Below are positions 23,825 to 63,643 of a DNA stretch of 64,000 nucleotides, in pieces. The DNA is taken from positions 7,650 through 71,649 of the forward strand of contig JAZKJG010000001.1 of assembly GCA_040384445.1 (NCBI GenBank). Reading direction: 5' to 3'. How positions within the stretch are numbered: the stretch's first letter is position 1; each line of letters starts with the position of its first letter. Origin of the DNA: Patescibacteria group bacterium (GTDB taxonomy: Bacteria > Patescibacteriota > Minisyncoccia > Phycocordibacterales > CAIZLB01). A model generated the notes under the pieces. That model was not told where the DNA came from and ran no database searches. It saw nothing but the letters and a program-made list of their open reading frames with translations. Position numbers and translations under genes: made by a program.

Positions 23825-25182
23825 TGAAAAAAAATGTATTCACGCATGTAAAAATCTTAACTTTAACTAGTATGTGTGTTATGGGTTTAGGTTTGCATGC
23901 GGATATAGATGTTAATTTAATGGTCGAAGGTTGCAATAATGATACTGTGTGTGAAATTCAGTACGGTGAAAGTTTTAATTCATGTCCAAACGATTGTGCC
24001 TATGTTGCGCCAACATCAACTCCTCCAACGCCAGTCACTCCACTGCCATCTGCTGATTCTTCTGGAATACTATTTGGAACTAAGGGTGACACAACATTGC
24101 GATTTGAAAATGTTCATATTACGCACGGACTTGATTCTGCTGTTTTAACATGGAATACGACACGTCCCACTAAGTCATCAATCAGTTGGGGACTGACAGA
24201 TGATTACGCTGAAGGTGTGCTGTCGGAAATTGAATTCATCAAAACACATTCATCAAAAATTAATAATATTATTCCAGGAAAAATATATGTATTTAAAATT
24301 ACGGCAGTAGATGCAGACGGAGTTTATGTAACATATTCTGGAAACTTTTTACTTAAAAAAGAAACCCCTGTACTCTTGCCACTAAACGTTGCTGATTTTA
24401 GAATTTTTACTGCTCCAACAGGAATTGGACTCAGGTGGAATAATGTAAGTGATTTAGAATATGAATATGTACGAATTATTAGGTCCACAACAGGATATCC
24501 TCATAATCCATCAGATGGAAAAGTTGTATATGAGGGTAAGGGACAAAGCTTTGTAGATATAAATGTGCTTGAGGGGGTAAGATATTATTATGCTGCGTTT
24601 GTTCGAAATCAATCCTCACAATATTCTTCAGGAGTTTTAAGGACAGTAATAAAATATAAAAACGGAATCACTCCACTTGATTCTGATGTTGGTTTTCCAT
24701 TTGAAAATGATAATCAGATAGATACTGCAATTCCGTCAAATGTATTCCAACTCACACATCAAGATATAGATTTTATTCAAAATAATACAAAGATCTCTTT
24801 CATATCTTCAGTCGTCCCTGTAAATTCAAGTATTCCGCTAATTGTAAGTGTTCCTAAATTTAATAATTCAGTAGTGTTTTTGACAATGACCTCAAGTGAT
24901 CAGACATATTTATTTGCATACAATGTTAGCGATGATAGATTAGAGGTGCAAATTCCATCCTTGCACACAGATAATTCTATTGAATATTTTCTGTATATAT
25001 TAAATGATGGTACTTTCTATAAGCTTAATCAAGGAACATTCGACCTGTCTCCATCTGTCGATTATACCGACACGAGAAATGGCAAAAAAAGAGCTCAAAA
25101 CCTTAAAGATTTTCTTATAATTATACCTATTGCTGTTTTTTTGATTGCGATTAAATTGATTTATAGAATTTTTAAAAAATAA
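23824..25182 (+). CDS. Surface protein with Cys-rich N-terminal module, Pro/Thr linker, two FN3-like domains and C-terminal TM anchor (452 aa)
   Basis: Signal peptide. CNNDTVCEIQYGESFNSCPNDC. PTSTPPTPVTPLP linker. Two ~90-aa segments with FN3-like W..T and Y.Y.A patterns. Terminal FLIIIPIAVFLIAIKLIYRIFKK. Confidence 0.6.
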   Translation: MKKNVFTHVKILTLTSMCVMGLGLHADIDVNLMVEGCNNDTVCEIQYGESFNSCPNDCAYVAPTSTPPTPVTPLPSADSSGILFGTKGDTTLRFENVHITHGLDSAVLTWNTTRPTKSSISWGLTDDYAEGVLSEIEFIKTHSSKINNIIPGKIYVFKITAVDADGVYVTYSGNFLLKKETPVLLPLNVADFRIFTAPTGIGLRWNNVSDLEYEYVRIIRSTTGYPHNPSDGKVVYEGKGQSFVDINVLEGVRYYYAAFVRNQSSQYSSGVLRTVIKYKNGITPLDSDVGFPFENDNQIDTAIPSNVFQLTHQDIDFIQNNTKISFISSVVPVNSSIPLIVSVPKFNNSVVFLTMTSSDQTYLFAYNVSDDRLEVQIPSLHTDNSIEYFLYILNDGTFYKLNQGTFDLSPSVDYTDTRNGKKRAQNLKDFLIIIPIAVFLIAIKLIYRIFKK

Positions 25183-31200: not shown

Positions 31201-32719
31201 AACTGGTGGAACTTCTCCAGTAGAGAGAATGCGGATTGATAGTTTTGGAAATATTGGAATTGGAACCACAACTGTTCCTGCTTCACTATCATTGGCGAGC
31301 GCAACAACAACTGGTGATGCAATCTCAGTTCATGGACCATTAGGAACGAAACTTTTCAGTGTAAAACTTATTGCTCAAAACTTCGGAGGGCTTGTTGAAT
31401 CAGGAGCATTTATGGGTAACAACTCATTTTTTGCAGAAGAGTTTAACGTAGATACTGCGCTTATCAGTGCTGACAGTGCAGCGATTGGAGATAACGGAGG
31501 TATGTATTTTGATACAACATCTGTTACGTCAACATATTCAGCTACAGACTTCATTGGTGGATACGGAAGACTTGTGGCAAGTACCACAACGGGTGTTGGT
31601 GGATTGATTGGTTTTGGAAATGCTCAGAACAACCTTAGTTTAATGTTCTCTAAAGCAAACTTACCTGTTGTACAGATGAAAGTGAGAACAAATATTAACA
31701 ACACAACAAACGATACTTTTTGGGGGCTTATGGACCAGGCTACTGCTCCAACTGCGAACGACACGGCTCCAGCAAACGGTATATATTTCTGGAATAACAA
31801 CGCAGCAGGAGGATGGCAAGGGGTTGTGCGAAGTGGAGGTGCAAACGTAGGTACAGTAACTTGTCCAGGTGCTATCAGTACTACACAGTTTGCAATAGGA
31901 AGAATTCAGGTAGAAAGTACTTCAACCGTACGATTTTTGATTGATAACGATATTACAACTGACGGAGTTAATATGGTGGATTGTGGAACTGTGACAGGGG
32001 CAAACCCTTCTGCAGCTCTTGGAATCGCACTGTATAATATTCATACAGAAAACACTGCGACAGCAAGAAATATTGATATTGATTATATGCGAGTGTGGCA
32101 AGATGATGCGTCAACATCCTCAGATGAATCACTTGCAGGAGATGTTTCTTCAACTCCAGAAAAACTTACACAGTTCCTAGATAATGGATATCTTGTAGAC
32201 GGACTTGAATTAATGGGCAGAATTCAATCTGAAGATCAAAAAAATGTACTGGAAATTATTACGGATAAGGTGAAGAAAAATATGGAAATAGTTTCGGAAT
32301 TTGTGGCGCTTCGAGTTGTGGCAATGCGAGGATATTTTGAGGAGGTATTTACAAAGAAAATCCACACTGAAAAAATGTGTCTGAAGAAATCAGATGGTTC
32401 TGAGTATTGTGTAAATGGAGATGAGTTGCAATCAATCATGGAAGGAAAGGGTGTGGTGGTATCACCAACAACGAACCAGCCTGAAAATGTAGCCCCTACC
32501 TCTACGTCAACTTCAGATTCAGTGAGTGGTGGGGCAGCAACAAATACTGCTAACGAAGATCCTGATAGTTCCTCACCAACGGTGCAAGAGACTGAACAGC
32601 TCCCTCCTCCATCTGAAACTGTTCAGGAGCCTGCGTTTGAGCCCGAACCAGCACCAGCATCAACACCTGAACCTACTCCAACTTCGACACCAGAAGCTGC
32701 CCCTGCTCCAACAGAGTAG
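25271..32719 (+). CDS. Giant secreted repeat protein 2 (2482 aa), paralogous modules to giant gene 1, distinct C-terminal domain, Pro/Thr/Glu-rich tail
   Basis: Uninterrupted 7.4-kb ORF. Signal peptide/TM. The N-terminal domain is alignable with gene 1 (IDFNQ.L...V..G......PR..FGT). Segments 26190-26510 and 30700-30880 are ~90% identical at nt level to 14440-14790 and 19560-19740. ~32 copies of the 17-aa repeat. No SD.RLK-type chaperone block. Confidence 0.9.
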   Translation: MGTFIIKHVQKNCKKFLKTFLILGLFLMCFTAYSVVYAAFNPQINYQGKLTDASGNPVANGTYNIEFKLYTVSSGGSPIWTETRTGGDKVTITNGLFSVMLGSVNSISGIDFNQPLYLGVNIGGTGSPSYDGEMTPRKTFGTVPASFVAQTLEGYRAIQFLRSDVINSTSTGATFLKLEQAGAGAIAEFIGNTSSTILGIYSAGGGAVGIGTTTPTEKLTIANGNLLLQGEYGVKWTGGSQLYEQTVAGAGVDRMIYRPNGDRFDVIDEAGSTFMASFNVSNIQLFTAGVSRLFIDSSGNLGIGTTTQTEKLTIAGNINLTGAFKSNGNAGTLGQVLQTTGTGVQWVATSTLGISGGSLSGGTNGYLSRWTSSSTLSTGLFLDNGTVAGINATSSSYTFNVKGSGALGAFNVASSTGTSLLNVRANGYVGIGTNAAAYQLDVKADTSGITNVLNLSSSMTGAGDGTGILFSSSEGSLHARIRTSAYTGTTAGLIFEVTPSTDTLTEALRITDTGNVGIGTTTPSAKLDVWGNLKVGTSSTPILFANTATGKVGIGTVSPAHTLDLGGVSPTLNVGLYGGGGAATIRMLGEALFSFSGGTVGSTIAIGSADTSVDFDLAFHAGGSNRMYIDGATGNVGIGTTTSVELLTIAGNLNLTGALKSNGNAGTLGQILQTTGTGVQWVATSSLGISGGGGSGTVNSGLLGQVAFYSANGTAVSGTSTLFITGEKIGVGTTTVTEKLVVDGNALITGLLKGGTSANINLNGLSNNGVDFNYLNGGIFRTAETSIAGTNDIFFQGVPATTAGYTYLEAWQSAGLILGTGNSTAIIFKPNRTEYMRLTGTGDLGIGTSTPIAKLAVTGTGTTTGKAFVVANSNNTPIFTMLDNGNIGNGVGADPVSWDFHIQRTGNLYATLQSSTGHSTLRLVSATGLSPTLHFGDGSSNRWDVVSNGSNSGNLEFNSYSVGNVMSLGLTTGLVGIGTSTPSAKLDVWGNLKVGTSSTPTLFVNTATGKVGIGSSTPVSKLSVVASSGVAVTFENTATWSGSEFALDVKGYSNLSGLRINAADGINALYNGANTTLGFTNNQGYPITFSSWNGTVTELMRIDTTSGKIGIGTSTATEILSVAGNINLTGSFKSNGNAGTLGQVLQTTGTGVQWVATSSLGITGGGISGTVNSGLLGQVAFYDANGTVVSGTSTLFITGEKLGIGTTTPGYKLTVDGDVWLGTTTLANGNLVIGKDGSVASRGMLHSIFLGKDSGTSTAATGNSNFFGNGAGQYATNADNSNFFGSGAGESATEAAGSNFFGAVAGSGATYAAGSNFFGAGAGFSATEAAYSNFFGENTGSFATYADNSNFFGAAAGNNATNASSSNFFGAAAGDSATNAFNSNFFGRLAGAGAANAANSNFVGYNAGNNSTNAALSNFIGYNAGNDATNASSSNFIGFLAGMQATNASSSNIFGSYAGYQSTNAAYSNFIGYGAGQYATNARNSNFLGLGAGGGAAGAYDSNFFGVNAGSNTNAFRSNFMGYEAGSTATNATYSNFTGYYAGYGATNANDSNFIGRNAGYNATNASTTNFIGYNAGQNATNANLSNYIGYYAGNGATNASNVNALGAYAGQNATNASNSFFVGYQAGNNATNANMVTAIGYLAGSGASDAIFSNFFGYGAGQNATNTSNSNFFGASAGSGASQVSNSNFFGVSAGSAAVGASASNFFGSGAGQNATNAVSSNFFGFSTGSGATNAIFSNFFGQYAGQNATNASYSNFFGFNSGYGATTAQNSTFMGPQAGYQAANANNAIFLGQNSGYNDTVNNSTNWKSSILIGDYTSTGGFSNSIAIGQGTKNSATEQLNLGGLIYGLGIRATTTPTATPVSGGLVGIGTSTPGTILTIVADASVDSGLSVIGNNNGFFEGNIQNLSSGVNASSDWVATANNGDDTIHYIDMGINGSGGGAAPFTGANQAYLYSVSDTLNIGALGTGNTVNFYTTGGTSPVERMRIDSFGNIGIGTTTVPASLSLASATTTGDAISVHGPLGTKLFSVKLIAQNFGGLVESGAFMGNNSFFAEEFNVDTALISADSAAIGDNGGMYFDTTSVTSTYSATDFIGGYGRLVASTTTGVGGLIGFGNAQNNLSLMFSKANLPVVQMKVRTNINNTTNDTFWGLMDQATAPTANDTAPANGIYFWNNNAAGGWQGVVRSGGANVGTVTCPGAISTTQFAIGRIQVESTSTVRFLIDNDITTDGVNMVDCGTVTGANPSAALGIALYNIHTENTATARNIDIDYMRVWQDDASTSSDESLAGDVSSTPEKLTQFLDNGYLVDGLELMGRIQSEDQKNVLEIITDKVKKNMEIVSEFVALRVVAMRGYFEEVFTKKIHTEKMCLKKSDGSEYCVNGDELQSIMEGKGVVVSPTTNQPENVAPTSTSTSDSVSGGAATNTANEDPDSSSPTVQETEQLPPPSETVQEPAFEPEPAPASTPEPTPTSTPEAAPAPTE
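29060..30670 (+). repeat. Array of ~32 17-aa (51-bp) SNFFG..AG..ATNA repeats inside giant gene 2
   Basis: Same periodic motif as 16030-19520. Confidence 0.9.
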
Positions 32720-34736: not shown

Positions 34737-35612
34737 ATGACCCCTGCTCAGATACAATCAAGAATAGATGAAATAGAGCTTGCAATGCTTGAGAGTGATT
34801 TTTGGGTGGATAGCATAAAGGCTCAAGGGATCATGAAAGAATTGCAACAACTGAAAGCAGATCTTGTTGCTGGAGATTTTTCTCAAGTTGATGCAATCGT
34901 GAGTATTATATCTGGTGCAGGAGGTGACGATGCAGAAGATTTTGTAGGAATGCTTTTTTCAATGTATCAAAAGTTTTGTCAGAAAAATGGATGGGGGATG
35001 AGTATACTTCATGATCAACCTAATACTCTTGGAGGATATAAACAAATCATGTTTGAAATAAAAGGCAGGGGATCATATGGAATATTAAAAAATGAATCAG
35101 GTGTTCATCGACTTGTGCGAACATCTCCGTTTAATTCAAAAGGATTACGCCATACTTCTTTTGCACTTGTTGAAGTAGTTCCAAAACTTGACAAGGTGCT
35201 TGACGATTTCAAGTTGGATGAAAGTGAATTAGATATCACAACTCAGAAAGCTGGAGGCCCTGGAGGACAAAACGTAAACAAAAGAGAAACGGCAGTGCGT
35301 ATTGTTCATAAGCCAACAGGTATTTCTGTTCATGTTACAACTGAACGAGCACAAGCACAAAACAAAGAAAAGGCACTTCATATTATCCAAGCAAAACTTT
35401 TGAAAAAAAGAGATGATGATATGAAAGCAAAAGAAAAAGGATTGTCGACTACTGCGCATATTCAAATTGAGTGGGGATCACAGATTAGATCGTATGTGTT
35501 GCATCCATACAAGATGGTGAAAGATCATAGAACAGAATATGAGACAAGTTCGGTGGATGATGTTCTTGAGGGTGATATTGAAGGATTTTTGGAGGCTGAG
35601 AAGGGGTTGTAA
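34737..35612 (+). CDS. prfB: Peptide chain release factor 2 (short form, 291 aa, no frameshift site visible)
   Basis: SPF tripeptide ([10 protein letters not shown]) and GGQ motif ([10 protein letters not shown]). The start lies 8 nt after the upstream stop, so no room for a frameshifted leader. Confidence 0.85.
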
Positions 35613-36341: not shown

Positions 36342-36636
36342 TAAACTATTTCGAGTACATGCCTGTAAAGGTTGTCGTTTACTTTAGTTTATTGGGAAAA
36401 TGTGCAAGGTTTACGGTGATGAATCTTCATCGGGCGCAGTATCGATTGAGGCGATCAGGGGTCCCAAAACCACCTCCCCTCTTATTTGTAGTCGTAGACG
36501 TGGTTGTGGGTGTATCCGGGTAGAAAATTACCCGATGGCGTTGACGCAGACGATTGGATGTCATAGTCGTATTGGCTATATGGAAATGGAGACTGTCAGA
36601 GTCGACCGTGCAAGAAACAAGGTTCTCGTAAGCTCC
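36303..36636 (-). ncRNA. Candidate ~330-nt minus-strand leader RNA / riboregulator or stand-alone ncRNA (class unknown)
   Basis: Bounded by a consensus promoter (36644-36672) and a strong intrinsic terminator (36303-36341). GC ~48% versus ~38% background. Multiple local hairpins, for example aucggguaauuuucuacccggau. Confidence 0.4.
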
Positions 36637-36643
36637 ATCCGTC

Positions 36644-36672
36644 AGTATATGACCCTGCAATCCGTATGTCAA
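36644..36672 (-). promoter_or_regulatory. sigma70-type promoter on the minus strand: TTGACA-17 nt-TATACT
   Basis: Reverse complement of 36644-36672 reads ttgaca tacggattgcagggtca tatact. Perfect -35, 17-nt spacer, 5/6 -10. Confidence 0.6.
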
Positions 36673-36708
36673 CTATTTTCTATAAATAGCAAACGATACA
36701 ATATATCC

Positions 36709-38412
36709 ATGCAACCCCACAAAACAAAAAACAAGGTACTGAGTACTAAGAGTAGAAAATATATTTTTGTCATCGGTGGGGTAATGTCGGGAGTTGGAAA
36801 AGGAATCGCTACAAGTTCTATTGGTCTCATTTTAAAGTCTAAAGGTTATAAAATAAATTTAATAAAAGCTGACCCATACCTCAACGTCGATGCGGGAACT
36901 ATGAATCCCACAGAACACGGTGAGGTTTTTGTTATGCAGAACGGACTTGAGACTGATCAGGATATGGGAAACTATGAACGTTTTTTAAATGAAGATATTA
37001 GTCAGTTGAACTATATGACAAGTGGAATGGTATATAAGTCGGTGATCGATAGAGAACGGGCGCTCGGATACGGAGGAAAATGTGTAGAAGCAATTCCACA
37101 TGTTCGAGATGAAATTATTTCTCGATTTGAAAAAACAGCAAACGAACACGATAGTGATATTACGCTTGTTGAGATTGGGGGAACTATTGGTGACTATCAA
37201 AACGTGATGTTTATGGAAGCGGCACGAACCATGAAAATTCAACACCCAAAAGATGTGATTGTGATTGTTGTATCGTATGTTCCAATTCCAGGAACAATAG
37301 GTGAGATGAAATCAAAGCCAACCCAAAATGCTATTCGACAGTTAAATGGATATGGTTTGCATGCTGATTTTGTGATTGCACGAAGTGAAGTACCACTGGA
37401 CGAAAAACGAAAAGAAAAAATTGCAGTATCATGCAACGTTCCTCAGCAAAATGTAATCTCTGCACCAGACATTAAAAGTATTTATGATGTGCCAATAAAC
37501 TTTGAAAAAGATAAAATTGCAGATGCTCTCCTTGAGAGTTTGTATATGGATGCTTCTAAGGTAGGAAAAGCTGCTCGGGAAAAAGGTGCAGAGCTATGGA
37601 AAGGCTGGAATTCATTTGTGAAAAAAGTACATGCAAAAAGAACTAAGACTGTTCGTATTGCGATGATTGGAAAATACTTTGATAGCGGTGACTTTACGTT
37701 GTCTGACTCCTATCTATCTGTTATAGAGGCACTTAAGACTGCTGCAGCACACGCTGGAGCACAGATTGAGATAGAGTGGATTGACAGTAAGAAGATTGAG
37801 AAAGGAACGGTTAAATTATCTGAAGTATTTAAACGATGTGGAGGATTAATTGTTCCTGGAGGATTCGGTACGACTGGTGTTGAAGGGATTCTTTCGGCAA
37901 TTCAGTATGTTCGAGAGAAGAAAATTCCATTCCTTGGGATTTGTTATGGAATGCAACTTGCGGTTATCGAATATGCACGAACAGTTTGCAAATTAAAAGG
38001 AGCACATACAACAGAGATTGAAAAAACTGCAGCACATAAAATTGTAGATATTATGGAATCTCAGAAAAGTAATTTAACACAGTTCGTTATGGGAGGAAGT
38101 ATGAGGCTTGGTTCGTATACATGTAAATTAGCGAAGGGAAGTTTGTGTGAAAAATTATATAAATCAAATTCTGTAATTGAAAGACATAGGCATCGATATG
38201 AAGTTAATAATGAATATGTTCCACAGTTGGAGAAGGCGGGGTTGGTATTTTCTGGAACTTCACCGGACGGAAAGTTGATGGAGATGATTGAGTTGCCTAC
38301 AAGTAAACATCCGTATTTTACTGCGACTCAAGCACATCCTGAGTTTCGTTCAAGACCAGTAGGTAGTCATCCGCTTTTTGATGGGTTGATTAAGGCGGTG
38401 ATGGGGAGATAA
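36709..38412 (+). CDS. pyrG: CTP synthase (567 aa; start chosen at the ATG matching the conserved N-terminus, not the upstream in-frame ATG at 36400)
   Basis: The KYIFVIGGVMSGVGKGI P-loop-like N-terminus typical of PyrG. C-terminal glutamine amidotransferase block LGICYGMQ with catalytic Cys and HPEF. Confidence 0.9.
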   Translation: MQPHKTKNKVLSTKSRKYIFVIGGVMSGVGKGIATSSIGLILKSKGYKINLIKADPYLNVDAGTMNPTEHGEVFVMQNGLETDQDMGNYERFLNEDISQLNYMTSGMVYKSVIDRERALGYGGKCVEAIPHVRDEIISRFEKTANEHDSDITLVEIGGTIGDYQNVMFMEAARTMKIQHPKDVIVIVVSYVPIPGTIGEMKSKPTQNAIRQLNGYGLHADFVIARSEVPLDEKRKEKIAVSCNVPQQNVISAPDIKSIYDVPINFEKDKIADALLESLYMDASKVGKAAREKGAELWKGWNSFVKKVHAKRTKTVRIAMIGKYFDSGDFTLSDSYLSVIEALKTAAAHAGAQIEIEWIDSKKIEKGTVKLSEVFKRCGGLIVPGGFGTTGVEGILSAIQYVREKKIPFLGICYGMQLAVIEYARTVCKLKGAHTTEIEKTAAHKIVDIMESQKSNLTQFVMGGSMRLGSYTCKLAKGSLCEKLYKSNSVIERHRHRYEVNNEYVPQLEKAGLVFSGTSPDGKLMEMIELPTSKHPYFTATQAHPEFRSRPVGSHPLFDGLIKAVMGR

Positions 38413-53910: not shown

Positions 53911-56394
53911 ATGGCAAAAAGCAAAGCATCCAACCCAGCAGAAGAACCTGAAATTGTAGTACCAGCCCACATAAACGTTATCCCAAGAGGAATTGTAGAA
54001 GAGATGCAAGAGTCATATATTGACTACGCCATGTCAGTTATTACTGAGCGTGCACTTCCAGATATCCGAGATGGTCTAAAGCCAGTACAGAGAAGAATTC
54101 TTTTCGCCATGCATAAGATGGGACTTGTCCCAACAGCAAAGTTTAAGAAAAGTGCAACAGTGATCGGAGAAACTATGGGTAACTACCACCCACACGGTGA
54201 TGCTGCTATTTATCAAACTATGGTAAATATGGTGCAGGACTTTAGTATGAGATATCCTCTGATTTGGGGACAGGGTAACTTCGGAAACATTGACGGGTAT
54301 CCAGCTGCTGCACACCGATATACTGAGTCACGAATGGCAAAAATCGCTCCATTCATGCTAGCTGATATTGAAAAGAATACAGTAGATTTTCGCCCAAACT
54401 ATGATGGAACAAAGCGAGAGCCGACCGTTCTTCCGACAGTTATTCCAAACATGCTTCTGAACGGAACTCTAGGTATTGCTGTAGGTATGGCAACAAACAT
54501 TCCTCCTCATAACTTGGGAGAGATTGTTGACGCCACAAACCATCTTATTGATAATCCAGAAGCAACAACTTCTGATCTCTTGGAGTTTGTAAAAGGACCT
54601 GATTTTCCAACAGGAGGGATTATTTTTGATAAAAAAGCGATTGAGATAGCAGAGACTCATGGAAAAGGTGGAGTTGTTATGCGAGGTGAGGCTGAGATTG
54701 TTGAAGAGAAAGCAGGACAAGCCAAGATTGTGATTACGTCTATTCCGTATCGAGTGAACAAAGCATCACTTATCGAAAGTGTGGCTGATCTTGTGCGAGA
54801 CAAAAAACTTGAAGGGATCAAGGATATTCGAGATGAATCAACAACTGATATTCGAATTGTAATTGATTTGAAAAATGGAGCATATCCACAAAATATTTTA
54901 AACTTCCTATACAAACATACTCAGCTCGAGTCTACGTTCCACTACAATATTGTTGCGCTTGTAGACGGTGCACCTCAGACATTGTCATTGCGATCATCAC
55001 TTGATCATTTTATTACACACAGAAAATCAGTTATTAAACGAAGAACAGAGTTTGATTTACTAAAAGCCAAAGATAGAGCACATATTTTAGAGGGTCTTAA
55101 AAAGGCACTCGATCATATTGATGAGATTATTGCTCTTATCAAGAGAAGTAAAGATACTCCTACTGCACATACAAACTTGATGAAAGAGTTTAAGTTTTCT
55201 GATAGACAGTCTACTGCTATTCTTGAAATGAAACTTCAGCGACTTGCATCCCTAGAGCGAAAGAAGATTGAGGATGAACTTAAAGCTGTACAGGCTCTTA
55301 TTAAAGATCTTGAAGATATTCTTAAGAATCCAAAACGAGTTATTACAATTATTAAAGATGAGTTATCGGACATTAAAGCAAAATTTGGTGATGCGCGCCG
55401 AACCCGAGTTGTTGCCCATGGTATCCAAAACTTCTCTATTGAAGATGTGATTGCGGATGAAGAAAGTGTGCTCGTACTTACATCGGGTGGATATATTAAA
55501 CGAACAAATCCAGACGAGTACAAGAAGCAACGACGTGGAGGGGTTGGAGTGGTTGATGTAGATGTAAAAGAAGAGGATTTTATTACGCATCTTGTTTCTG
55601 CAACGATGCATAACGATCTTCTGTTCTTTACAGACAAAGGAAAAGCGTACCAGATCAAAATGTATGATATTCCAGAAGGTAAACGAGCTACGCGAGGTAA
55701 GTCTATTCAAAACTTCCTTTCACTTTCACAGGATGAGAAGGTAACCTCTATTCTTCCAATGCCAAAAGAAGTGAAGAAAGGAAGTGATCTATCTCTGATG
55801 TTGATTACAAAAGATGGAGTTGGAAAACGAGTTGGAATTGACAGTTTCAAAGATGTACGAAGAAGTGGAATTATTTCTATAAGTCTTGATGCAGGGGATC
55901 AACTTATTTCAGCGTCTTTTGTAGAACCAAAAGATACTGTGATTCTTGTATCATCGGATGCGCAGTCTATCCGATTCTCAGTCGAAGAAGTACGAGAAAT
56001 GGGACGAGCAGCAGGAGGTGTGCGAGCAATGAAGCTTGATAAGGGTGCATATATAGTAGGTGCAATCCCTGTAAAAGCTGGAAGCAAAGATGAAGCAGAG
56101 CTTCTTACTGTATCTACAAAAGGATACGGAAAGAAAACTTCTCTTGATGAATATAAAGTACAAGGGCGAGGAGGATCAGGAATTAAAACATTTAAAGTAA
56201 CAGAAAAAACTGGAGATCTTATTGCAGCACAGGTTGTAACTGAAGAGATTGAAGAAGTGGTAGCTATTTCAAAGAAGAGTCAGGTGATTCGATGTGAACT
56301 TAAAGAGATTCCAAATCTAGGACGTGATACACAAGGTGTACGAATTATGAAGCTTCGAGAAGGTGATTCACTTGCATCAGTTGTTGGAGTTTAA
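53911..56394 (+). CDS. gyrA: DNA gyrase subunit A (827 aa)
   Basis: RALPDIRDGLKPVQRRIL. AAHRYTESRM active-site Tyr region. GyrA-box-like QRRGG.G near the C-terminal beta-pinwheel repeats. Confidence 0.95.
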   Translation: MAKSKASNPAEEPEIVVPAHINVIPRGIVEEMQESYIDYAMSVITERALPDIRDGLKPVQRRILFAMHKMGLVPTAKFKKSATVIGETMGNYHPHGDAAIYQTMVNMVQDFSMRYPLIWGQGNFGNIDGYPAAAHRYTESRMAKIAPFMLADIEKNTVDFRPNYDGTKREPTVLPTVIPNMLLNGTLGIAVGMATNIPPHNLGEIVDATNHLIDNPEATTSDLLEFVKGPDFPTGGIIFDKKAIEIAETHGKGGVVMRGEAEIVEEKAGQAKIVITSIPYRVNKASLIESVADLVRDKKLEGIKDIRDESTTDIRIVIDLKNGAYPQNILNFLYKHTQLESTFHYNIVALVDGAPQTLSLRSSLDHFITHRKSVIKRRTEFDLLKAKDRAHILEGLKKALDHIDEIIALIKRSKDTPTAHTNLMKEFKFSDRQSTAILEMKLQRLASLERKKIEDELKAVQALIKDLEDILKNPKRVITIIKDELSDIKAKFGDARRTRVVAHGIQNFSIEDVIADEESVLVLTSGGYIKRTNPDEYKKQRRGGVGVVDVDVKEEDFITHLVSATMHNDLLFFTDKGKAYQIKMYDIPEGKRATRGKSIQNFLSLSQDEKVTSILPMPKEVKKGSDLSLMLITKDGVGKRVGIDSFKDVRRSGIISISLDAGDQLISASFVEPKDTVILVSSDAQSIRFSVEEVREMGRAAGGVRAMKLDKGAYIVGAIPVKAGSKDEAELLTVSTKGYGKKTSLDEYKVQGRGGSGIKTFKVTEKTGDLIAAQVVTEEIEEVVAISKKSQVIRCELKEIPNLGRDTQGVRIMKLREGDSLASVVGV

Positions 56395-56421: not shown

Positions 56422-57765
56422 ATGAGCATCACAAAAGACCTGAATATATTTCAACTTGTCACCATGGCTATATTTTTAGTTATCGGTGCAATTGGAATCG
56501 TATTATTTGCAACGAGTAAGGCAGGTATTGGTTCAAAAGGATATAAAGCAGAAGTGTGGGGAGTACTTCCAAAATCTGTCATCGATACTTCTCTCGATTC
56601 ATATAGAATTCAAGGGATTGATCCAAACTTCACGTATACAGAATTTCCTGAAGTTGGGTTTGGTCAAGCGATACTTCAAGCGGTTGCTGAAGGTCGAGGA
56701 CCTGATGCGATTATTTTCCCTGACACTATGTATTTTGGTCAGGTAAATAAGCTCGTTACAATTCCTTCAGAAACAATTTCTGCAAAAACATTTGAAGAGA
56801 CATATATTGATGCTGGAAGAAAATTTGGTGTTGTTGGAGGAATTAAAGCTTTTCCACTTGTAGTAGATCCGATTGTAATGTATTACAACCGAGACATGTT
56901 TACATCGGCTGGAATTCTAATTCCACCAAAGACATGGAAAGAAGTGAGTGATCTTACAAACAAAATTGCGCGAAAACGAGATGATGGAGTTCTAGATCGA
57001 GCTTTTGTGGCGCTTGGAGAATATTCGAACATAAATCATGCCAAGGAAATTATATATACTCTACTTTCACAAGCTGGTGTTCGAATGAGTTTTTATGATG
57101 CTGGAATTAGCTCGTATAGTTCTGGTATTACAAAATCACAACAATCTGAGCTCGAGGCTGGTGCTATCTCTGCATCAGAAAAAACTCGTTCAGTGCTTTC
57201 GTATTACACTGAATTTGCAAACCCCTTGAAATCTACATATTCATGGAATAGATCTTTTTCTTCATCTAGAGATGCATTTCTTGCGCAAAACTTAGCTGTG
57301 TACTTTGGTCCAGGAAGTGAAGTCGAATACATGAGAAGTCGAAACCCAAATCTTAACTTCGCTATTGCTCCAGTTCCGCAAGAGAATTCTGATTTTAAAT
57401 CAGTACACGGAAAAACATACGCACTTGGGTTTTTGATTACATCAAAAAATGTAAAAGGTGCATATGACGAGGTGACAAAATTCTTTACTGCAGATCCTAT
57501 GATGGAGGGGTTGGCAAATGCAATGAGAATTGCTCCTGCAAAACGATCTCTTATTATCACTTCAAAATCAGCTCTAAACAGTGCAGATCTTGGTGTGATC
57601 TATGATTCAGCCGTATACGCAGGCACATGGATGGATCCAAATCCTGCTGCGTCAGATGATATTTTGACAACCCTCATCGAGGCAATCACAAGTGGTAAGC
57701 AAACTATTTCAGAGTCTATACAAGACGCCTCAGATAGATTGGATCGATTATATAACCCACAATAG
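56422..57765 (+). CDS. Extracellular solute-binding protein (family-1-like), N-terminal TM anchor (447 aa)
   Basis: TM helix. GPDAIIFPD. PLVVDPIVMYYNRDMFTSAGILIPPKTWKEV (MalE-like block). No adjacent permease/ATPase genes. Confidence 0.6.
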   Translation: MSITKDLNIFQLVTMAIFLVIGAIGIVLFATSKAGIGSKGYKAEVWGVLPKSVIDTSLDSYRIQGIDPNFTYTEFPEVGFGQAILQAVAEGRGPDAIIFPDTMYFGQVNKLVTIPSETISAKTFEETYIDAGRKFGVVGGIKAFPLVVDPIVMYYNRDMFTSAGILIPPKTWKEVSDLTNKIARKRDDGVLDRAFVALGEYSNINHAKEIIYTLLSQAGVRMSFYDAGISSYSSGITKSQQSELEAGAISASEKTRSVLSYYTEFANPLKSTYSWNRSFSSSRDAFLAQNLAVYFGPGSEVEYMRSRNPNLNFAIAPVPQENSDFKSVHGKTYALGFLITSKNVKGAYDEVTKFFTADPMMEGLANAMRIAPAKRSLIITSKSALNSADLGVIYDSAVYAGTWMDPNPAASDDILTTLIEAITSGKQTISESIQDASDRLDRLYNPQ

Positions 57766-57782
57766 TGTGATATTATAAAGCT

Positions 57783-58094
57783 ATGGGAAATTTTTTAAAA
57801 CTTCAATGCTTTGGTGAGCAAGCTGGATGTGGGTGGAAAGAATTAGAGCCGTTAGTAACTGGTATCTTAAAAAATTTATTAATCATCGGAATGTTTATTG
57901 CAGCAGTTATGATTTCGTACACAGGGTGGATTTTGTTTAAAGGTATGGGCGACCCTTCTGCACGAAGTAAAGCACGAGCAAAGTTAATTAATATTGTGAT
58001 CGGACTTATTATTCTCTTTGGTGCGTACTTTATAGTAGATTTGGTATTGACACAGCTTGGGGTAAAAGGTGACTATAGAAAAATAGGTATTTAA
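57783..58094 (+). CDS. Small two-TM pilin-like protein, paralogue 1 (VirB2/TrbC-like topology)
   Basis: Helix-loop-helix: LLIIGMFIAAVMISYTGWILF / KGMGDPSARSKARAK / LINIVIGLIILFGAYFIV. Confidence 0.55.
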   Translation: MGNFLKLQCFGEQAGCGWKELEPLVTGILKNLLIIGMFIAAVMISYTGWILFKGMGDPSARSKARAKLINIVIGLIILFGAYFIVDLVLTQLGVKGDYRKIGI

Positions 58095-58115
58095 AAGCTA
58101 TAATTATATATACAT

Positions 58116-58382
58116 ATGCAAATTCCGAATCCGACAAAATTTAATGATCTGACACAAATTGTGGCAGTAGTTGTAAACGTTGTACAAATTCTTCTTATCA
58201 TGGCTACGACTCTATATCTGATCTATGCAGGTCTGATGTTTGTGACAGCACGAGGAGATTCTGCAAAGCTTACAAAAGCGCGAGACGCGTTACTTTGGGG
58301 AATGGTTGGAGCTGCACTTATTCTTGCAGCACGAGTTCTCGTGACAACATTACAAGGGACAGTTAATAGCGTATTAGGATAA
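58116..58382 (+). CDS. Small two-TM pilin-like protein, paralogue 2
   Basis: TARGDSAKLTKARDALLWGMVGAALIL loop + TM2, homologous to paralogue 1. Confidence 0.55.
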   Translation: MQIPNPTKFNDLTQIVAVVVNVVQILLIMATTLYLIYAGLMFVTARGDSAKLTKARDALLWGMVGAALILAARVLVTTLQGTVNSVLG

Positions 58383-58386
58383 TTTT

Positions 58387-58929
58387 ATGAAATATATATT
58401 TTTATTTTTACTTTTGGTTACTGCGGGAGGTGTTGGAGCACAAGGTGTTGATTATAAAGCGAATCCAAATTTTTATACAGACAATGTTGCTCAATCAAAT
58501 GCGAGCGGAGGATTGCTTAATACATCAGACAGTAATACAAGTGGAGGGCAAGTAAATACGTCTGGAGGTAATTTTAGTGGTGGGCAAATAAACACTTCGG
58601 GTGGTAACTACAGTGGTGGTCAACTTCAAGAGATAAGTAAGCCTAATCTTACAATCGTAGGAATTACAAACTGGTTTGTTCAAATTCTAAATTATATCGG
58701 TATCCTTATCTTCACTGCAGCACTTGTATGTTTCTTGTATGGAGTCTTCCTGCTTATGTTTGTTCATGGTGCGAGTGACGAATCTCGATCAAAAGGTAAA
58801 AAATTTATTACATGGGGAATCGTTTCTCTGTTTGTTATGACATCGACTTGGGGACTTGTAAACATTCTACGATCTTCAATCTTTGGTTCAAGTGGGGGAA
58901 GTACCTTGTATATCCCACAACTAAAGTAG
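58387..58929 (+). CDS. Small two-TM pilin-like protein, paralogue 3, with signal peptide and Gly/Asn-rich 8-aa repeats
   Basis: Signal peptide. SGGQVNTSGGNFSGGQINTSGGNYSGGQ repeats. HGASDESRSKGKKFITWGIVSLFVMTSTWGLVNILRS. Confidence 0.55.
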   Translation: MKYIFLFLLLVTAGGVGAQGVDYKANPNFYTDNVAQSNASGGLLNTSDSNTSGGQVNTSGGNFSGGQINTSGGNYSGGQLQEISKPNLTIVGITNWFVQILNYIGILIFTAALVCFLYGVFLLMFVHGASDESRSKGKKFITWGIVSLFVMTSTWGLVNILRSSIFGSSGGSTLYIPQLK

Positions 58930-58977
58930 TATACTATATACGTATTTATTAATTAATTAAACAATCATTATTTCTAT

Positions 58978-59367
58978 ATGAAATTATTACTATCAATATT
59001 AACCTTAGCCCTTACTCCTGTTTTTGCTTTTGCACAGGGAGCAGCACCAGTAACTCGAACAGTTGATGGATTTCTAAACTACCTTATCTACATTGCAGGA
59101 CGAGCACTTCCACTTCTTATTCTAGCTGCTGTTGTTCTACTCCTTTTTGGAATCGTAAATACATTTTTCTTCCAAAGTGATGGTGAAAAGAGAAAAGAAG
59201 GAAAGTCATTTATCATATGGGGAATTGTTGCATTGTTTGTTATGGTATCAGTATGGGGACTTGTAAACATCCTACGTTCAACTTTCCAGCTTGATAATAA
59301 TAATATTCCATCAGCTCCTACTATCCCAGTACAGAACGCACCGATGGCAGTACCTACAACAAACTAA
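58978..59367 (+). CDS. Small two-TM pilin-like protein, paralogue 4, with signal peptide
   Basis: SDGEKRKEGKSFIIWGIVALFVMVSVWGLVNILRS, near-identical core to paralogue 3. Confidence 0.55.
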   Translation: MKLLLSILTLALTPVFAFAQGAAPVTRTVDGFLNYLIYIAGRALPLLILAAVVLLLFGIVNTFFFQSDGEKRKEGKSFIIWGIVALFVMVSVWGLVNILRSTFQLDNNNIPSAPTIPVQNAPMAVPTTN

Positions 59368-59438
59368 AGAATAGTTGTTGCTATAAAAACCTAACGATGA
59401 GTTAGGTTTTTTTGGTATCTGTATTATAATAAACACAT

Positions 59439-59732
59439 ATGAATTCAGCACTCGTGATTATATCTAAAATTAATCAAAATATTCTTAATCCAATTATAAT
59501 CATACTATTCGGGGTCGCGATGATTTATTTCTTGTTTGGAGTTCTAGAATATTTATGGAAATCAAAGTCAGATCCTGCTGCAATTCAAACAGGCGCAAAG
59601 CATATGGGGTGGGGATTATTCGGAATGTTCGTCATGGTTTCTGTGTTTGGGTTCTTACAGTTTATTATTAATACATTGCCGATTGATACGACAACGAAGG
59701 ATAATGTAAACAAAGTATTGCCGTTAAATTAA
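59439..59732 (+). CDS. Small two-TM pilin-like protein, paralogue 5
   Basis: KSKSDPAAIQTGAKHMGWGLFGMFVMVSVFGFLQFI core. Confidence 0.5.
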   Translation: MNSALVIISKINQNILNPIIIILFGVAMIYFLFGVLEYLWKSKSDPAAIQTGAKHMGWGLFGMFVMVSVFGFLQFIINTLPIDTTTKDNVNKVLPLN

Positions 59733-60657: not shown

Positions 60658-62061
60658 TTATTTTCTATCCTTCTTCGAACTGTCGATATTGAGGAATGTT
60701 CCTGAGGCAGCCTTACCTGCAAGTTCAATTGTCTGACGAGTTCCTTCCTTACGTTCAACCTGTTCCTTGGCTTCTTTCATTGAAATCATATCATCACCTT
60801 TGAGTTCTGTCGGTGTGCCGATCATGTTGAGATCCTTCCACGTTTCCAGGATCTTTTCATTGGTGTTTTTGAGATCAATACGTTCGGTCTCTTCGTCGAT
60901 TATCTGAGCCGCTTTCCTCTGCATTGCCCGAACGATATCCGGATACTCGTTTTCTATGTCTTTAACTCGGATATCAAGAAGATCGAAGCCTAGATTGTTG
61001 AGTAACGTATGCGCACTCTCTGGACCTCTTTCATCCATTATTTCTTTAGAGAGTGTGTCTGTGGCTGCCTTTAAGATATCAATGTTGGGGAAGCGTTTAA
61101 CTTCATTTCCATCTTTATCCAATTTAACCTTTTCAATCTCGTCTAGTACAGGCATCTGCACAAAACGGAAGATGACAGCATTAATTGCAGCAACAACTCG
61201 TCTCTCTTTGTCTCCTGCGAGTTTCAAGTATGCACGTGTGCTGTTAGGGCGATACTCGAACGAAACGTCAAACTTAGCTCTGAAGCCATTACCTTCAACG
61301 ATGAATGGTTCACGCTTGCCATCTTTTCCAAGCAAGCCAATTGTAACATTTTCCTTTTGAAATGGGACTGTTAAAATTTCCGTCCCAATCCATTTCGGCA
61401 GCCCAAGACAGGTAAAGCCATGGTGAATATCATCGAATATAGGCTTTCCGAAATAAAGAATTACTCCTCTAAAGTTAAGCCCGATAGTTGTTGAATCAAA
61501 GCTATCCCAGACAGAATAGACTACTCCAAGCAACAGAATCAAGTCGAAGGCAGATTTGAAAAATCCACTTCCGCCAAGAGGGATGTAGAGCAGTGTATTC
61601 AGAATTGTCCAGATAACATATGTTCCAACTGTATGGAAAGAAATGAAGAATATGAATCGGCATAAGTTGCTCTCAGTATTTGACAACCGAGGTCCAACAA
61701 GTTCCGAAGGCATACCTTTATCTCCTTTAATTTCGACTGCTGGTTTTTTAAGCCAAGCATATATCCCCCAAGTTCCCAAGAGAACCAAGGTTGTAATGAT
61801 AAGCGGTGTTGCAATTGTTTCCGGATTCAGATTAATCTGGTCCCTAGGAAGCACTGTGCTATTCAGCCACATGATTCCTAGAACAGAGAGCAGGGTTGTG
61901 ATAGGGATTATCCAGAAGAAAATCAACCGATGCATCCTTCCTCTCCTGACTCTCTCATTCTCGATCTGCAGATGCAGTTCTTTAGATATTACTCTTTCCA
62001 TAACGGTATAGGTGTTGGGTTTGGTGTTAAAGATCCAAGGAAGTCTCTCTTCCTTACCCAT
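60658..62061 (-). CDS. SPFH/band-7 domain membrane protein (467 aa)
   Basis: N-terminal multi-TM region, then SPFH-like core (FDVSFEYRP...ERRVVAAINAVIFRFV...LLDIRVKDIENEYPDIVRAMQRKAAQIIDEE) and a coiled-coil tail. Confidence 0.6.
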   Translation of the reverse strand: MGKEERLPWIFNTKPNTYTVMERVISKELHLQIENERVRRGRMHRLIFFWIIPITTLLSVLGIMWLNSTVLPRDQINLNPETIATPLIITTLVLLGTWGIYAWLKKPAVEIKGDKGMPSELVGPRLSNTESNLCRFIFFISFHTVGTYVIWTILNTLLYIPLGGSGFFKSAFDLILLLGVVYSVWDSFDSTTIGLNFRGVILYFGKPIFDDIHHGFTCLGLPKWIGTEILTVPFQKENVTIGLLGKDGKREPFIVEGNGFRAKFDVSFEYRPNSTRAYLKLAGDKERRVVAAINAVIFRFVQMPVLDEIEKVKLDKDGNEVKRFPNIDILKAATDTLSKEIMDERGPESAHTLLNNLGFDLLDIRVKDIENEYPDIVRAMQRKAAQIIDEETERIDLKNTNEKILETWKDLNMIGTPTELKGDDMISMKEAKEQVERKEGTRQTIELAGKAASGTFLNIDSSKKDRK

Positions 62062-62095: not shown

Positions 62096-63643
62096 CTAGT
62101 GTGACAAATGCTTCAATCGTCTTGCTGGTGCTCGTAGAAGCCCAAATATAGCCTTCTTAAGGCTAAAATGAGGCATAGCTGCTCTCATAAACGGTACAAA
62201 CACTCCAATACTAAACAGAGCCCATGCAGTGTTATTTACCACTGATGCTGACAAACCTTCTCTCATTACGGCCACTGTAAATCCAACCACGAACAATACT
62301 ATGTAAGAAATATGAGGAAGAATGAGTAATGGAAAATTTCCCTTGATAGCAGTCTTTGATGTTACTGAAAATGTATTTTTTGTCCCAGTTATAGCTGCCC
62401 ATAGTGCTTGAAAATGAATCCAGAATCCACTCATTGCAAATGAAAGTGCGATAAATGTAAATTGAAAGTTAGATGTGACCGACAGGTTGTACACAGAAAG
62501 TAAAATGTATGGAAGGAAAATCACAGCCAAAAGCATTGAAGAAATTTCAATTGGTATCAATCCTGTAAATAGAAAAACAATCGGCAATAGTATATTGATT
62601 GCAACAACAATTCCTGAAAGGAAAAAAGTTACTGCAGAAAGGTATTGAATCTTTTGAGCCAAAGTTAACCCTTTTCTCATGATCACGTTGTATTTAAAAA
62701 TTACGTCGAGTGCTCCTCGAGCCCATCTGAATTGTTGTTTTGTGTATGATAGAAAATCTTCTGGCGCTAAACCTTCAGCAAGAACTTCAGGAAGATAAAA
62801 TGAATTCCATCCTTTTTCATGAATGAACATTCCTGTTGCAAAATCTTCCGCAATACTTTCGGTACACATTCCTCCAACTTGTGAGAGTGCTTCTCGTGAG
62901 ATCACCATATTTGTTCCACACATTGTTGCGGCGTTCAGTCTGTTTTTTCCTCGACAGATTGGACCGTAAAATAATTCTTGTTGTTCCCATGCTGCACGAG
63001 TCACACGATTTACATACGCGTTTTTATAGTACTGAGGTGTTTGTACAAATCCCATATTTTGATCTACAAAATACGGCATAGTTTTTTCAAGGAAGTCTGG
63101 ATATGGAACATGATCTGCATCAAAAATTACAATGTATGGCGCTTTGGTTTGTCCAATTGCATTGTTAATGTTTCCAGCTTTTGCACCACCGTTCTCTTGT
63201 CGTGTAAAACATGTAACCCTAAGCTCTTTTCCGAGCGCTTCGATTTCTTGCCAGTTATCTTTACCTGCCACGAATCCATCATTTAAAATATACACTGTAT
63301 GATTCGGATAGTGCATATCTCGTGCCGCCGTTACTGTGGTTCGAACGATGTCAGTAGGCTCTCCTGCAACTGTAATAAACACATCAACGTGAGGAGTAAA
63401 TTCTGCATGTACTCGAACAGCATGTTTCATATCCCAAACTGTATATAGATATGTAAGAGCCTGCCATGTGTGAAAAACTTCACCTACAATTACAAGGGTA
63501 AAGAGGAATGCATTTCCAGGACTAAAGAGAAAAGTAATAGCGGCAAAATAGATGAGAGATGCAGCACCTGTAATCAAGATCAGTATTTTTGAAGAATACT
63601 CAGCTAGAAAAGTTTTTCGAGATGGAGATGATGTGTATGTCAT
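62096..63643 (-). CDS. Processive family-2 glycosyltransferase, cellulose/chitin-synthase-like (515 aa)
   Basis: N-terminal TM. YILNDG and IVIFDADH D-motifs. QQFRWARG (QxxRW) motif. C-terminal multi-TM channel-like region. Confidence 0.8.
   Translation of the reverse strand: MTYTSSPSRKTFLAEYSSKILILITGAASLIYFAAITFLFSPGNAFLFTLVIVGEVFHTWQALTYLYTVWDMKHAVRVHAEFTPHVDVFITVAGEPTDIVRTTVTAARDMHYPNHTVYILNDGFVAGKDNWQEIEALGKELRVTCFTRQENGGAKAGNINNAIGQTKAPYIVIFDADHVPYPDFLEKTMPYFVDQNMGFVQTPQYYKNAYVNRVTRAAWEQQELFYGPICRGKNRLNAATMCGTNMVISREALSQVGGMCTESIAEDFATGMFIHEKGWNSFYLPEVLAEGLAPEDFLSYTKQQFRWARGALDVIFKYNVIMRKGLTLAQKIQYLSAVTFFLSGIVVAINILLPIVFLFTGLIPIEISSMLLAVIFLPYILLSVYNLSVTSNFQFTFIALSFAMSGFWIHFQALWAAITGTKNTFSVTSKTAIKGNFPLLILPHISYIVLFVVGFTVAVMREGLSASVVNNTAWALFSIGVFVPFMRAAMPHFSLKKAIFGLLRAPARRLKHLSH

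Follow-up and report, generated by a model that had tools for sequence, protein, structure and literature searches.

A five-gene array of VirB2-like PF18895 pilins coupled to an SBP-like gene in a patescibacterial genome

The 64 kb stretch of DNA analysed here (the window) carries five consecutive genes for small proteins with two hydrophobic helices, which raises the question of whether they encode pilin subunits and of what such subunits would assemble into. A first-pass annotation had taken them for a tandem set of same-strand paralogues, and both the paralogy and the coordinates hold exactly: five ORFs on the + strand run from 57783 to 59732 (Table 1), with pairwise identities of 17-37% (37% for P3 and P4). 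When a profile of four of the proteins was run against the 629 ORFs of the window, the omitted protein was each time the top non-training ORF (E 1.5e-4 to 7e-17; 8.7e-11 for P5 with the profile of P1-P4), against a best unrelated window ORF at E ≥ 0.002. The ORF at 7078-7530, with E 0.002 in this leave-one-out search, was rejected as a family member on account of its single TM helix, and no sixth array member was found among the ORFs of the 64 kb window. P4 is a 100% match to NCBI V4686_00255, from a Patescibacteria MAG.

Table 1. Window coordinates of the five pilin paralogues and of the features discussed with them.
Feature	Position	Strand	Description
gyrA	53911..56394	+	DNA_topoisoIV and DNA_gyraseA_C domains
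SBP-like protein	56422..57765	+	447 aa; N-terminal membrane anchor; SBP_bac_8 and SBP_bac_1, E ~1e-13
Pilin paralogue 1 (P1)	57783..58094	+	103 aa; PF18895 27.3 bits
Pilin paralogue 2 (P2)	58116..58382	+	88 aa; PF18895 30.9 bits
Pilin paralogue 3 (P3)	58387..58929	+	180 aa; PF18895 31.5 bits on residues 93-161
36-nt (12-aa) tandem repeat in P3	58532..58623	+	2.5 copies, Tandem Repeats Finder
Pilin paralogue 4 (P4)	58978..59367	+	129 aa; PF18895 35.1 bits
Pilin paralogue 5 (P5)	59439..59732	+	97 aa; PF18895 23.2 bits

Hydropathy bears out the common core of the proteins, as each of P1-P5 has two long hydrophobic helices with a short charged loop between them (WKSKSDP in P5). The consensus proposed for the second helix stands for part of the array, the motif WG(I/L)V..LFVM.S.WGLVN being present in P3-P5 and weaker in P1 and P2. 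Three signal peptides had been counted; two are seen, since only P3 and P4 carry at the N-terminus a further hydrophobic segment and a predicted cleavage site of the AxA type. The other three proteins have the two core helices only, and their N-termini are not extendable because of in-frame stops upstream. Alignment shows a leader on P1 and P2 orthologues of other genomes, and in the case of P2, here a bare two-helix core, the signal peptide is present in the orthologues of close relatives.

Beyond the shared core, the paralogues differ in architecture by the presence or absence of a signal peptide, by a Cys pair and by their tails. P1 carries the Cys pair (C..GCGW) ahead of TM1, and 30 of 38 first-position P1 orthologues have the motif C[GDSN][WFY]. 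The Cys-rich N-terminal domains of P1 orthologues are variable. In P3, a predicted signal peptide (residues 1-20) is followed by a low-complexity extension rich in G, N, S and T, by the two-helix core and by a C-terminal ..IPQLK. The extension holds 8 N-x-S/T sequons and a tandem repeat that had first been read as 8 aa long; its period is in fact 36 nt (75% matches, score 94), encoding SGGQ(V/I)NTSGGN(F/Y). P3 orthologues vary in length from 98 to 286 aa, and the length and repeat unit of the N-terminal extension differ from genome to genome. P4 combines a predicted signal peptide (..AFA|QG) and the two-helix core with a Pro-rich C-terminal tail; in its orthologues LFVMVSVWGLVN of the core and the TM2 motif are invariant, and nearly all of its 512 homologues are annotated with PF18895.

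No Pfam-level match had been named for the array, yet the best Pfam match of all five proteins is PF18895 (T4SS_pilin), at 23-35 bits. The curated gathering score of this family, 26.6 bits for the whole protein, is passed by P1-P4, with P5 just under it. The match spans profile positions 5-71 of 71, and the core of about 70 residues, in which a short charged loop joins two hydrophobic helices, is present in all five proteins. Among the 115 members of 23 related arrays, every one matches PF18895 at E ≤ 0.01, 31 match TrbC/VirB2 (PF04956; E ≤ 0.01, best E 1.9e-9), 106 match NCBIfam NF045849 (best E 2.7e-11) and 6 match the pLS20_p028 family, in agreement with the VirB2/TrbC-pilin-like reading first offered. 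P1 is the most TrbC/VirB2-like member of the array; its PF04956 score, the best in the window, is 20.1 bits (E 7.4e-4) against a gathering score of 27.9 bits. Taken with orthologues reaching E 1.9e-9, this weak score indicates a superfamily relationship rather than membership. Similarly, P1 scores 38.4 bits and the other four 16-27 bits against the NF045849 equivalog cut-off of 40 bits, so that by profile score P1-P5 are relatives of the NF045849 proteins, not equivalogs. Judged by these matches, the five putative pilin genes belong to the known VirB2-like PF18895 family, and as five in a row they form an array under the definition of at least two PF18895 genes, in tandem or one gene apart, in a Patescibacteria genome. 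The feature is one already described for this group.

Structure comparison was less informative, as a helical hairpin is too simple for fold discrimination by Foldseek. An AF2 model of P4 is a helix-turn-helix of modest quality (helices 2-20, 29-65 and 69-102; mean pLDDT 72, pTM 0.38). When this model was compared with the PDB by Foldseek, no match was better than E 2; an archaeal conjugative pilus (Aeropyrum, 8dfu) came at rank 25, with E 6.6, and was not counted as evidence. A P4-orthologue profile run against all PDB sequences retrieved no solved pilin and a chance match to FliL only (E 0.11).

Secretion or pilus machinery had been expected nearby, and its absence had been set as a refuting condition; the nearby part of that condition goes against the first reading. 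In the 64 kb window, Pfam searches of ORFs of at least 120 aa found no VirB4, VirB6, VirB3/PrgI or coupling protein, no VirD4 or T4P ATPase was present, and none of the window ORFs was an uncharacterised polytopic protein. T4SS genes were likewise absent from the 3.7 kb past the right end of the window, and virB4 or other T4SS machinery from the 6-10 kb around 160 related arrays. Exact-sequence look-ups of P3 and RpoC gave no match, and those of the GT2 gene and of P4 gave a single 11.4 kb Logan contig identical to the window. Near one metagenome array (L140), the single large Walker-A ORF was rejected as VirB4 for its LexA-like C-terminus. The array is thus located outside any T4SS cluster with virB4 or virB6; the 2025 catalogue of such arrays does not require a place inside one. 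With no local T4SS genes, a link to a T4SS is based on homology and on other lineages rather than on local context.

What does accompany the array is a gene for a membrane-anchored protein resembling solute-binding proteins (SBP-like), and the two are tightly coupled in both search directions. The SBP-like gene is directly upstream of the array in 68 of 80 related genome loci, all from Patescibacteria, and in a reverse search from the SBP-like protein, all 48 metagenome loci whose sequence continues for 2.5 kb or more downstream carry 2-7 pilin ORFs there. The protein has weak MalE-like matches in the PDB, and no ABC permease or ATPase gene is found beside it. Its N-terminus looks like a plain signal anchor by sequence; a prepilin-like reading, suggested by a conserved FQ, was dropped for want of a Gly at -1. 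Farther upstream is gyrA (57/80 genome loci, 50/80 metagenome loci), which is context rather than a functional part, though possibly of the same transcription unit. The gaps are 27 nt from gyrA to the SBP-like gene, 17 nt from there to P1, and 21, 4, 48 and 71 nt between successive pilin ORFs, and such short gaps fit a single putative operon. In a scan of 53.5-60.7 kb, promoter and terminator sites were no more numerous than in shuffled sequence, so the operon structure is read from gene spacing alone.

Given the above, the locus is probably (we would say about 60%) a chromosomal module typical of Patescibacteria, here of the Paceibacteria/Parcubacteria lineage, in which an SBP-like protein is followed by five PF18895 pilins of a T4SS pilus or conduit. 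We infer this function by analogy with VirB2-type systems. Under this scenario, Sec/YidC would insert each pilin in the cytoplasmic membrane, with the leader removed in P3 and P4. As in VirB2 and TraA, both ends of the pilin would face outward and the Lys/Arg-rich loop would be cytoplasmic. Subunits would then be extracted and polymerised by a VirB4/VirB6-type T4SS, encoded elsewhere in most Patescibacteria and often near dnaA, and the product would be a heteromeric pilus-like fibre or a short conduit. The five subunit types, being non-redundant, may have roles like those of major, minor or tip subunits. Contact with the host cell in epibiotic growth would be made by variable outward extensions, namely the sequon-rich repeat of P3 and the Cys-rich N-terminal domains in orthologues of P1, together with the SBP-like partner.

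The same neighbourhood lends itself to an explanation independent of a T4SS, in which the five hairpins and the anchored SBP-like protein form a surface or membrane assembly of their own that captures host-derived solutes, or, as a possible variant, a channel of small subunits fed by the SBP. The archaeal 'bindosome', in which sugar-binding proteins are organised by small pilin-like proteins, provides a loose analogy. The conserved partner of the array is indeed the SBP-like gene and not virB4, no VirB4-like ATPase lies in the 6-10 kb around the 160 arrays, and the SBP has no adjacent permease or ATPase of its own; uptake of host molecules has also been speculated on in a review (PMC12857230). 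However, the family shares homology with pilin-like proteins of conjugation, the PF18895 genes of S. epibionticum are inside a T4SS cluster that has no SBP, Patescibacteria with a T4SS often have unlinked pilin genes (PMC12102498), and the module encodes no energising component. We regard solute capture without a T4SS as unlikely, if well short of negligible. Rather more doubtful is a specific form of the idea, that the SBP-like protein and the five VirB2-like subunits of Paceibacteria are one dedicated nutrient-capture pilus, either T4SS-independent or using a T4SS for assembly only. Host-derived molecules would then be scavenged by means of a sugar-type binding protein that a pilin-like fibre presents or feeds. 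If true, this would provide the essential 'pilin arrays' of Patescibacteria, a long-standing puzzle, with a concrete, testable function.

Five diversified copies in a row had also suggested a variable repertoire, in which recent, fast-diversifying duplicates would serve as interchangeable major subunits for antigenic or host-range variation. The low identity between neighbours, the variable N-terminal extension of P3 and the fact that the idea has been raised for Patescibacteria (PMC12102498) are all in its favour. However, the five-gene order is kept across about 80 related genomes, where arrays have 2-7 genes and most commonly 5, and the best cross-genome match is at the same array position in 177/189 cases. 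In five-gene arrays P1 is first in 38/38, P5 is last in 37/38, and P2 keeps its position in 36/38. Orthologues in the close relatives L001-L007 are 37-65% identical, compared with 17-37% for paralogues within a genome, and the paralogues differ in architecture, unlike interchangeable copies. The antigenic-variation reading does not fit, as every position of the array has a conserved orthologue of its own; positional orthology largely refutes it on sequence grounds, and we consider it very improbable. The array is instead, as these alignments indicate, an old and fixed set of putatively distinct subunits.

That the genes encode holins, bacteriocin-immunity proteins, other small membrane effectors or type IV/Flp pilins is scarcely credible: small two-TM proteins are generic and P4 has a noise-level match to Phage_holin_2 (E 0.23), but a PHROGs search gave zero matches for the array proteins, the 25 families most often matched by the 115 members at E ≤ 0.01 include no holin or immunity family, the surrounding genes are housekeeping ones (gyrA, IF-2, RbfA, ClpB) and none is of phage or bacteriocin type, and, as first noted for the GFxxxE N-terminus, P1-P5 have no type IV/Flp prepilin motif (G|F/M xxxE) and no T4P family among their Pfam matches, with Sec-type AxA sites instead and a hydrophobic core that is a hairpin, not a single N-terminal helix.

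Returning to the T4SS pilus or conduit, few envelope systems enriched in Patescibacteria have been shown to be essential, and VirB2-like pilin arrays are one of them; the present locus leaves the overall picture of them as it is. What it adds is the fixed gene order, the lack of a virB4 neighbour and the coupling to an SBP-like gene: within one large lineage, the five distinct subunits make up a fixed set, encoded apart from virB4 and paired with an SBP-like protein, which argues against simple antigenic variation. The SBP-like protein gives the array a named partner, whose ligand and interactions are open to testing.

Among known systems, the closest are arrays already published for Patescibacteria, in which 2-11 divergent pilins of VirB2-like type are encoded in tandem (McLean 2020; Wang 2023; Quiñonero-Coronel 2025). 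The Quiñonero-Coronel catalogue lists 441 arrays, each of 2-11 pilins that share on average 25% identity; these arrays peak in abundance in Microgenomatia and Saccharimonadia, whereas the window array is of the Paceibacteria/Parcubacteria lineage. VirB4 is found in most Patescibacteria, and just 1135 of 1948 assemblies have the pilin close to virB4 (PMC12102498). In Saccharibacteria, arrays of 4-6 small Sec-targeted proteins adjoin VirB4/B6 (PMC7427843). The array described here, those of S. epibionticum, the 'Sec-secreted array' of N. lyticus TM7x and the 441 catalogued arrays are of the same family, tandem, same-strand and chromosomal, and resemble one another in that neighbours are about 25% identical and some members have a signal peptide. 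Unlike the window array, those of S. epibionticum and TM7x are near virB4/virB6: SEML1_0014-0019 of S. epibionticum are six PF18895 pilins by VirB6, and the five genes here are by gyrA and the SBP-like gene. The pilin subunits of the S. epibionticum T4SS cluster were reported to be essential, with SEML1_0017-0019 among those scored as such in the supplementary table of that study (PMC10633639). Essentiality is known for the Saccharibacterial array only. A pilus of PF18895 proteins has no observation in the literature, and reviews treat it as a possibility (PMC12857230).

Likeness to the TrbC/VirB2 conjugative pilins of diderm T4SS (A. tumefaciens VirB2, RP4 TrbC) consists of a leader, predicted here for P3 and P4, two hydrophobic helices, a basic loop and weak profile similarity. 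Diderm T4SS pilins have one subunit, whereas the window has five putatively distinct ones in a monoderm host with no adjacent VirB3-B11. The Mycoplasma ICE 'Mbov_0395 family pilin-like conjugal transfer protein' (NF045849) and pLS20_p028 are likewise small two-TM proteins, of monoderm conjugation, but are single genes in mobile elements, whereas the array here has five genes and lies among housekeeping genes of the chromosome. Finally, the VirB2 clusters of Bartonella and Anaplasma also have several VirB2-type genes in tandem (PMC12102498); a role in antigenic or host-range variation has been proposed for those paralogues, whereas the paralogues of the window are ancient and positionally fixed.

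Five consecutive plus-strand ORFs (P1-P5) form an array of pilin-like genes at exactly the coordinates reported in the first-pass annotation, with gaps of 21, 4, 48 and 71 nt from P1 to P5. Pairwise identity among the five proteins is 17-37%, with the maximum between P3 and P4. A profile built from any four of them recovered the fifth as the top non-training ORF of the 629 in the window (E 1.5e-4 to 7e-17); unrelated ORFs scored no better than E 0.002 in these leave-one-out profiles. Leave-one-out recovery and pairwise identity establish P1-P5 as true paralogues; no sixth member was found elsewhere in the window. Hydropathy bears out the helix, charged loop, helix core in all five, each having two long hydrophobic segments and a short charged loop (GDPSARSKARAK in P1, GDSAKLTKARD in P2, SDESRSKGKK in P3, SDGEKRKEGK in P4 and SDPAAIQTGAK in P5). 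Signal peptides had been assigned to three of the proteins, but a separate N-terminal one is present only in P3 (MKYIFLFLLLVTAGGVGAQG) and P4 (MKLLLSILTLALTPVFAFA, cleavage site before QG), and in-frame stops rule out an upstream extension of P1, P2 and P5. The repeat in P3, first described as 8 aa, has a real period of 12 aa. In the AF2 model of P4 (mean pLDDT 72), a signal helix is followed by a helix-turn-helix (29-65 and 69-102).

Features of the pilin-like array and of the surrounding window
Feature	Position	Strand	Description
Giant ORF	7575-21308	+	4577 aa; C-terminal Peptidase_S74 (endosialidase intramolecular chaperone) domain
Small ORF	22078-23046		C-terminal TM anchor
Small ORF	23824-25182		C-terminal TM anchor
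Giant ORF	25271-32719	+	2482 aa; no Pfam match
Release-factor-like ORF	34737-35612	+	291 aa only; PCRF match starts at profile position 92
CTP synthase	36400-38412	+	~120-aa unannotated N-terminal extension ahead of CTP_synth_N domain
gyrA	53911-56394		
SBP-like protein	56422-57765	+	447 aa; N-terminal membrane anchor and SBP_bac_1/8 (MalE-like) domain
P1	57783-58094	+	103 aa
P2	58116-58382	+	88 aa
P3	58387-58929	+	180 aa
Tandem repeat inside P3	58532-58623		2.5 copies, 75% match, period 36 nt (12 aa)
P4	58978-59367	+	129 aa
P5	59439-59732	+	97 aa
SPFH/Band-7 protein	60658-62061	-	Membrane protein 3' of the array
GT2 glycosyltransferase	62096-63643	-	

Although no Pfam-level match had been named for the array, the best Pfam match of all five proteins is PF18895, T4SS_pilin (27.3, 30.9, 31.5, 35.1 and 23.2 bits for P1 to P5; gathering score 26.6 bits), and the structural intuition of a VirB2/TrbC-like architecture was correct. 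P1 also matches TrbC/VirB2 (PF04956) at 20.1 bits. All five match a single NCBIfam family, NF045849, which represents a pilin-like conjugal transfer protein (Mbov_0395 family) found in integrative conjugative elements (ICEs) of Mycoplasma; P1 reaches 38.4 bits, short of the 40-bit cut-off. Among 115 proteins from 23 related arrays, PF18895 was matched by all 115, NF045849 by 106, TrbC by 31 (best E 1.9e-9) and the pLS20_p028 conjugation protein family by six. P4 is 100% identical to NCBI V4686_00255 from a 'Patescibacteria group bacterium' MAG (314,435 bp contig), and most of its 512 homologues are annotated as PF18895.

Related loci from species-representative genomes all belong to Patescibacteria (80/80), most being labelled Paceibacterota, Parcubacteria or Nomurabacteria, and their arrays have two to seven members, most commonly five. 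The gene order is conserved by type: across 38 five-gene arrays, 177 of 189 best cross-genome matches kept their place in the array, and orthologues in the closely related loci L001-L007 share 37-65% identity with the window proteins as compared with 17-37% for the window paralogues. The P1 type carries a Cys pair (C..GCGW) ahead of TM1 in 30 of the 38 arrays, and first-position genes of distant genomes encode extended Cys-rich domains at the N-terminus, reaching 437 aa, as though this subunit displayed an adhesin-like module. P3-type proteins (98-286 aa) have a signal peptide and a hypervariable G/N/S/D-rich extension whose length and repeat unit vary among genomes, and many, close relatives included, end in an ..IPQLK motif. 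In the P4 type, LFVMVSVWGLVN is invariant and the tail is Pro-rich, while the P5 type is leaderless and always the final gene. The signal peptide and N-terminal extension of P2 orthologues from the closest genomes (L001-L007) are missing from P2 itself; this is not an assembly error, as a separate Logan assembly of that sample gave a 100% identical sequence. Residues 38-89 of P3 contain eight N-x-S/T sequons, seven of them inside the G/N/S-rich repeat; P1, P2, P4 and P5 have none. Glycosyltransferase genes lie closely downstream on the opposite strand, one in the window and more beyond it, and P3 may be glycosylated.

P1 is directly preceded by gyrA and a gene for a solute-binding-protein-like (SBP-like) product. 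This SBP-like gene lies immediately 5' of the array in 68 of the 80 genome loci, those without it being mostly the ones with the shortest upstream sequence. In the reverse search of metagenomes from the SBP-like protein, every one of the 48 loci that extended 2.5 kb or more downstream had two to seven pilin ORFs directly following, most commonly five. The SBP-like gene is obligately linked to the pilin array in this lineage; no ABC permease or ATPase adjoins it. In 55 of the 80 loci, a gene for a 178-aa SAM-dependent methyltransferase separates gyrA from the SBP-like gene, ~1.3 kb upstream of the arrays; it is absent in the window, where gyrA and the SBP-like gene are 27 nt apart.

The window is ordinary chromosome, with rpoB/rpoC, two giant ORFs, a release factor, CTP synthase, ABC exporters, TsaD and gyrA, and housekeeping flanks recur across the 80 loci (gyrA in 57; also IF-2, RbfA, ClpB and S1). 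The giant ORFs and the TM-anchored small ORFs between them probably encode large surface proteins. The release-factor-like ORF, whose upstream neighbor ends 8 nt ahead, appears N-terminally shortened. On the 3' side of the array, the opposite strand encodes an unknown 230-aa protein, the SPFH protein and a GT2 glycosyltransferase, with PMT_2, GT2-GtrA and GH8 following in the first 3.7 kb past the window. SPFH-type genes occupy the equivalent downstream place in ~19 related loci (e.g. L050:2749-3906), forming two BLAST clusters of which one was Pfam-checked (Band_7).

Beyond the observed family, topology, fixed five-type composition and SBP-like linkage, we infer the function of the array by analogy with VirB2/TraA pilins and from the Patescibacteria literature. 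P1-P5 would insert in the membrane so that both termini lie outside and the basic loop faces inward, and a type IV secretion system (T4SS) encoded elsewhere would extract and polymerize them into a heteromeric fiber or conduit of five non-redundant subunits, with the variable extensions on its outside, perhaps together with the SBP-like protein, engaging the host. The main rival is a T4SS-independent module, that is, an SBP-associated surface or membrane assembly. Secretion or pilus machinery had been anticipated close to the array, but the window contains no VirB4, VirB6, PrgI, coupling protein or type IV pilin ATPase, nor an unannotated polytopic protein able to conceal a VirB6, and no VirB4-like ATPase was found within 6-10 kb of any of 160 genome and metagenome loci. 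Large Walker-A ORFs near these loci are limited to ClpB, ABC transporters and a single LexA-like ORF. Antigenic variation, one of the options that the first-pass annotation had proposed for the set, can largely be excluded on the basis of positional orthology among the array members. Identification as holins, immunity proteins or type IV pilins is without support. No holin or immunity family occurred at E <= 0.01 in the top 25 families by frequency for the 115 array proteins, and a PHROGs search gave no match.

PF18895 is already a named family, and Patescibacteria arrays are already published. In Saccharibacteria, four to six small Sec-targeted proteins were described in 2020 arrayed beside VirB4/B6 (PMC7427843). 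Six PF18895 genes (SEML1_0014-0019) adjoin VirB6 in S. epibionticum without an SBP neighbor, whereas the window array has an SBP-like neighbor and no VirB6. Pilin subunits of the S. epibionticum T4SS cluster were reported as essential (PMC10633639), and the accessible part of a supplementary table scores SEML1_0017-0019 as essential. A 2025 survey counted 441 arrays of 2-11 pilins each (mean identity 25%), found pilins close to virB4 in 1135 of 1948 assemblies and suggested antigenic or host-range variation (PMC12102498); a 2025 review called a pilus 'an intriguing possibility' (PMC12857230). In the literature consulted for this comparison, we did not meet strict positional orthology of five pilin types, the obligate pairing of array and anchored SBP-like protein without nearby virB4 seen in this lineage, or the broad match to the Mycoplasma ICE pilin-like family. 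That broad sequence match to NF045849 suggests that the pilins need not have been borrowed from diderm systems.
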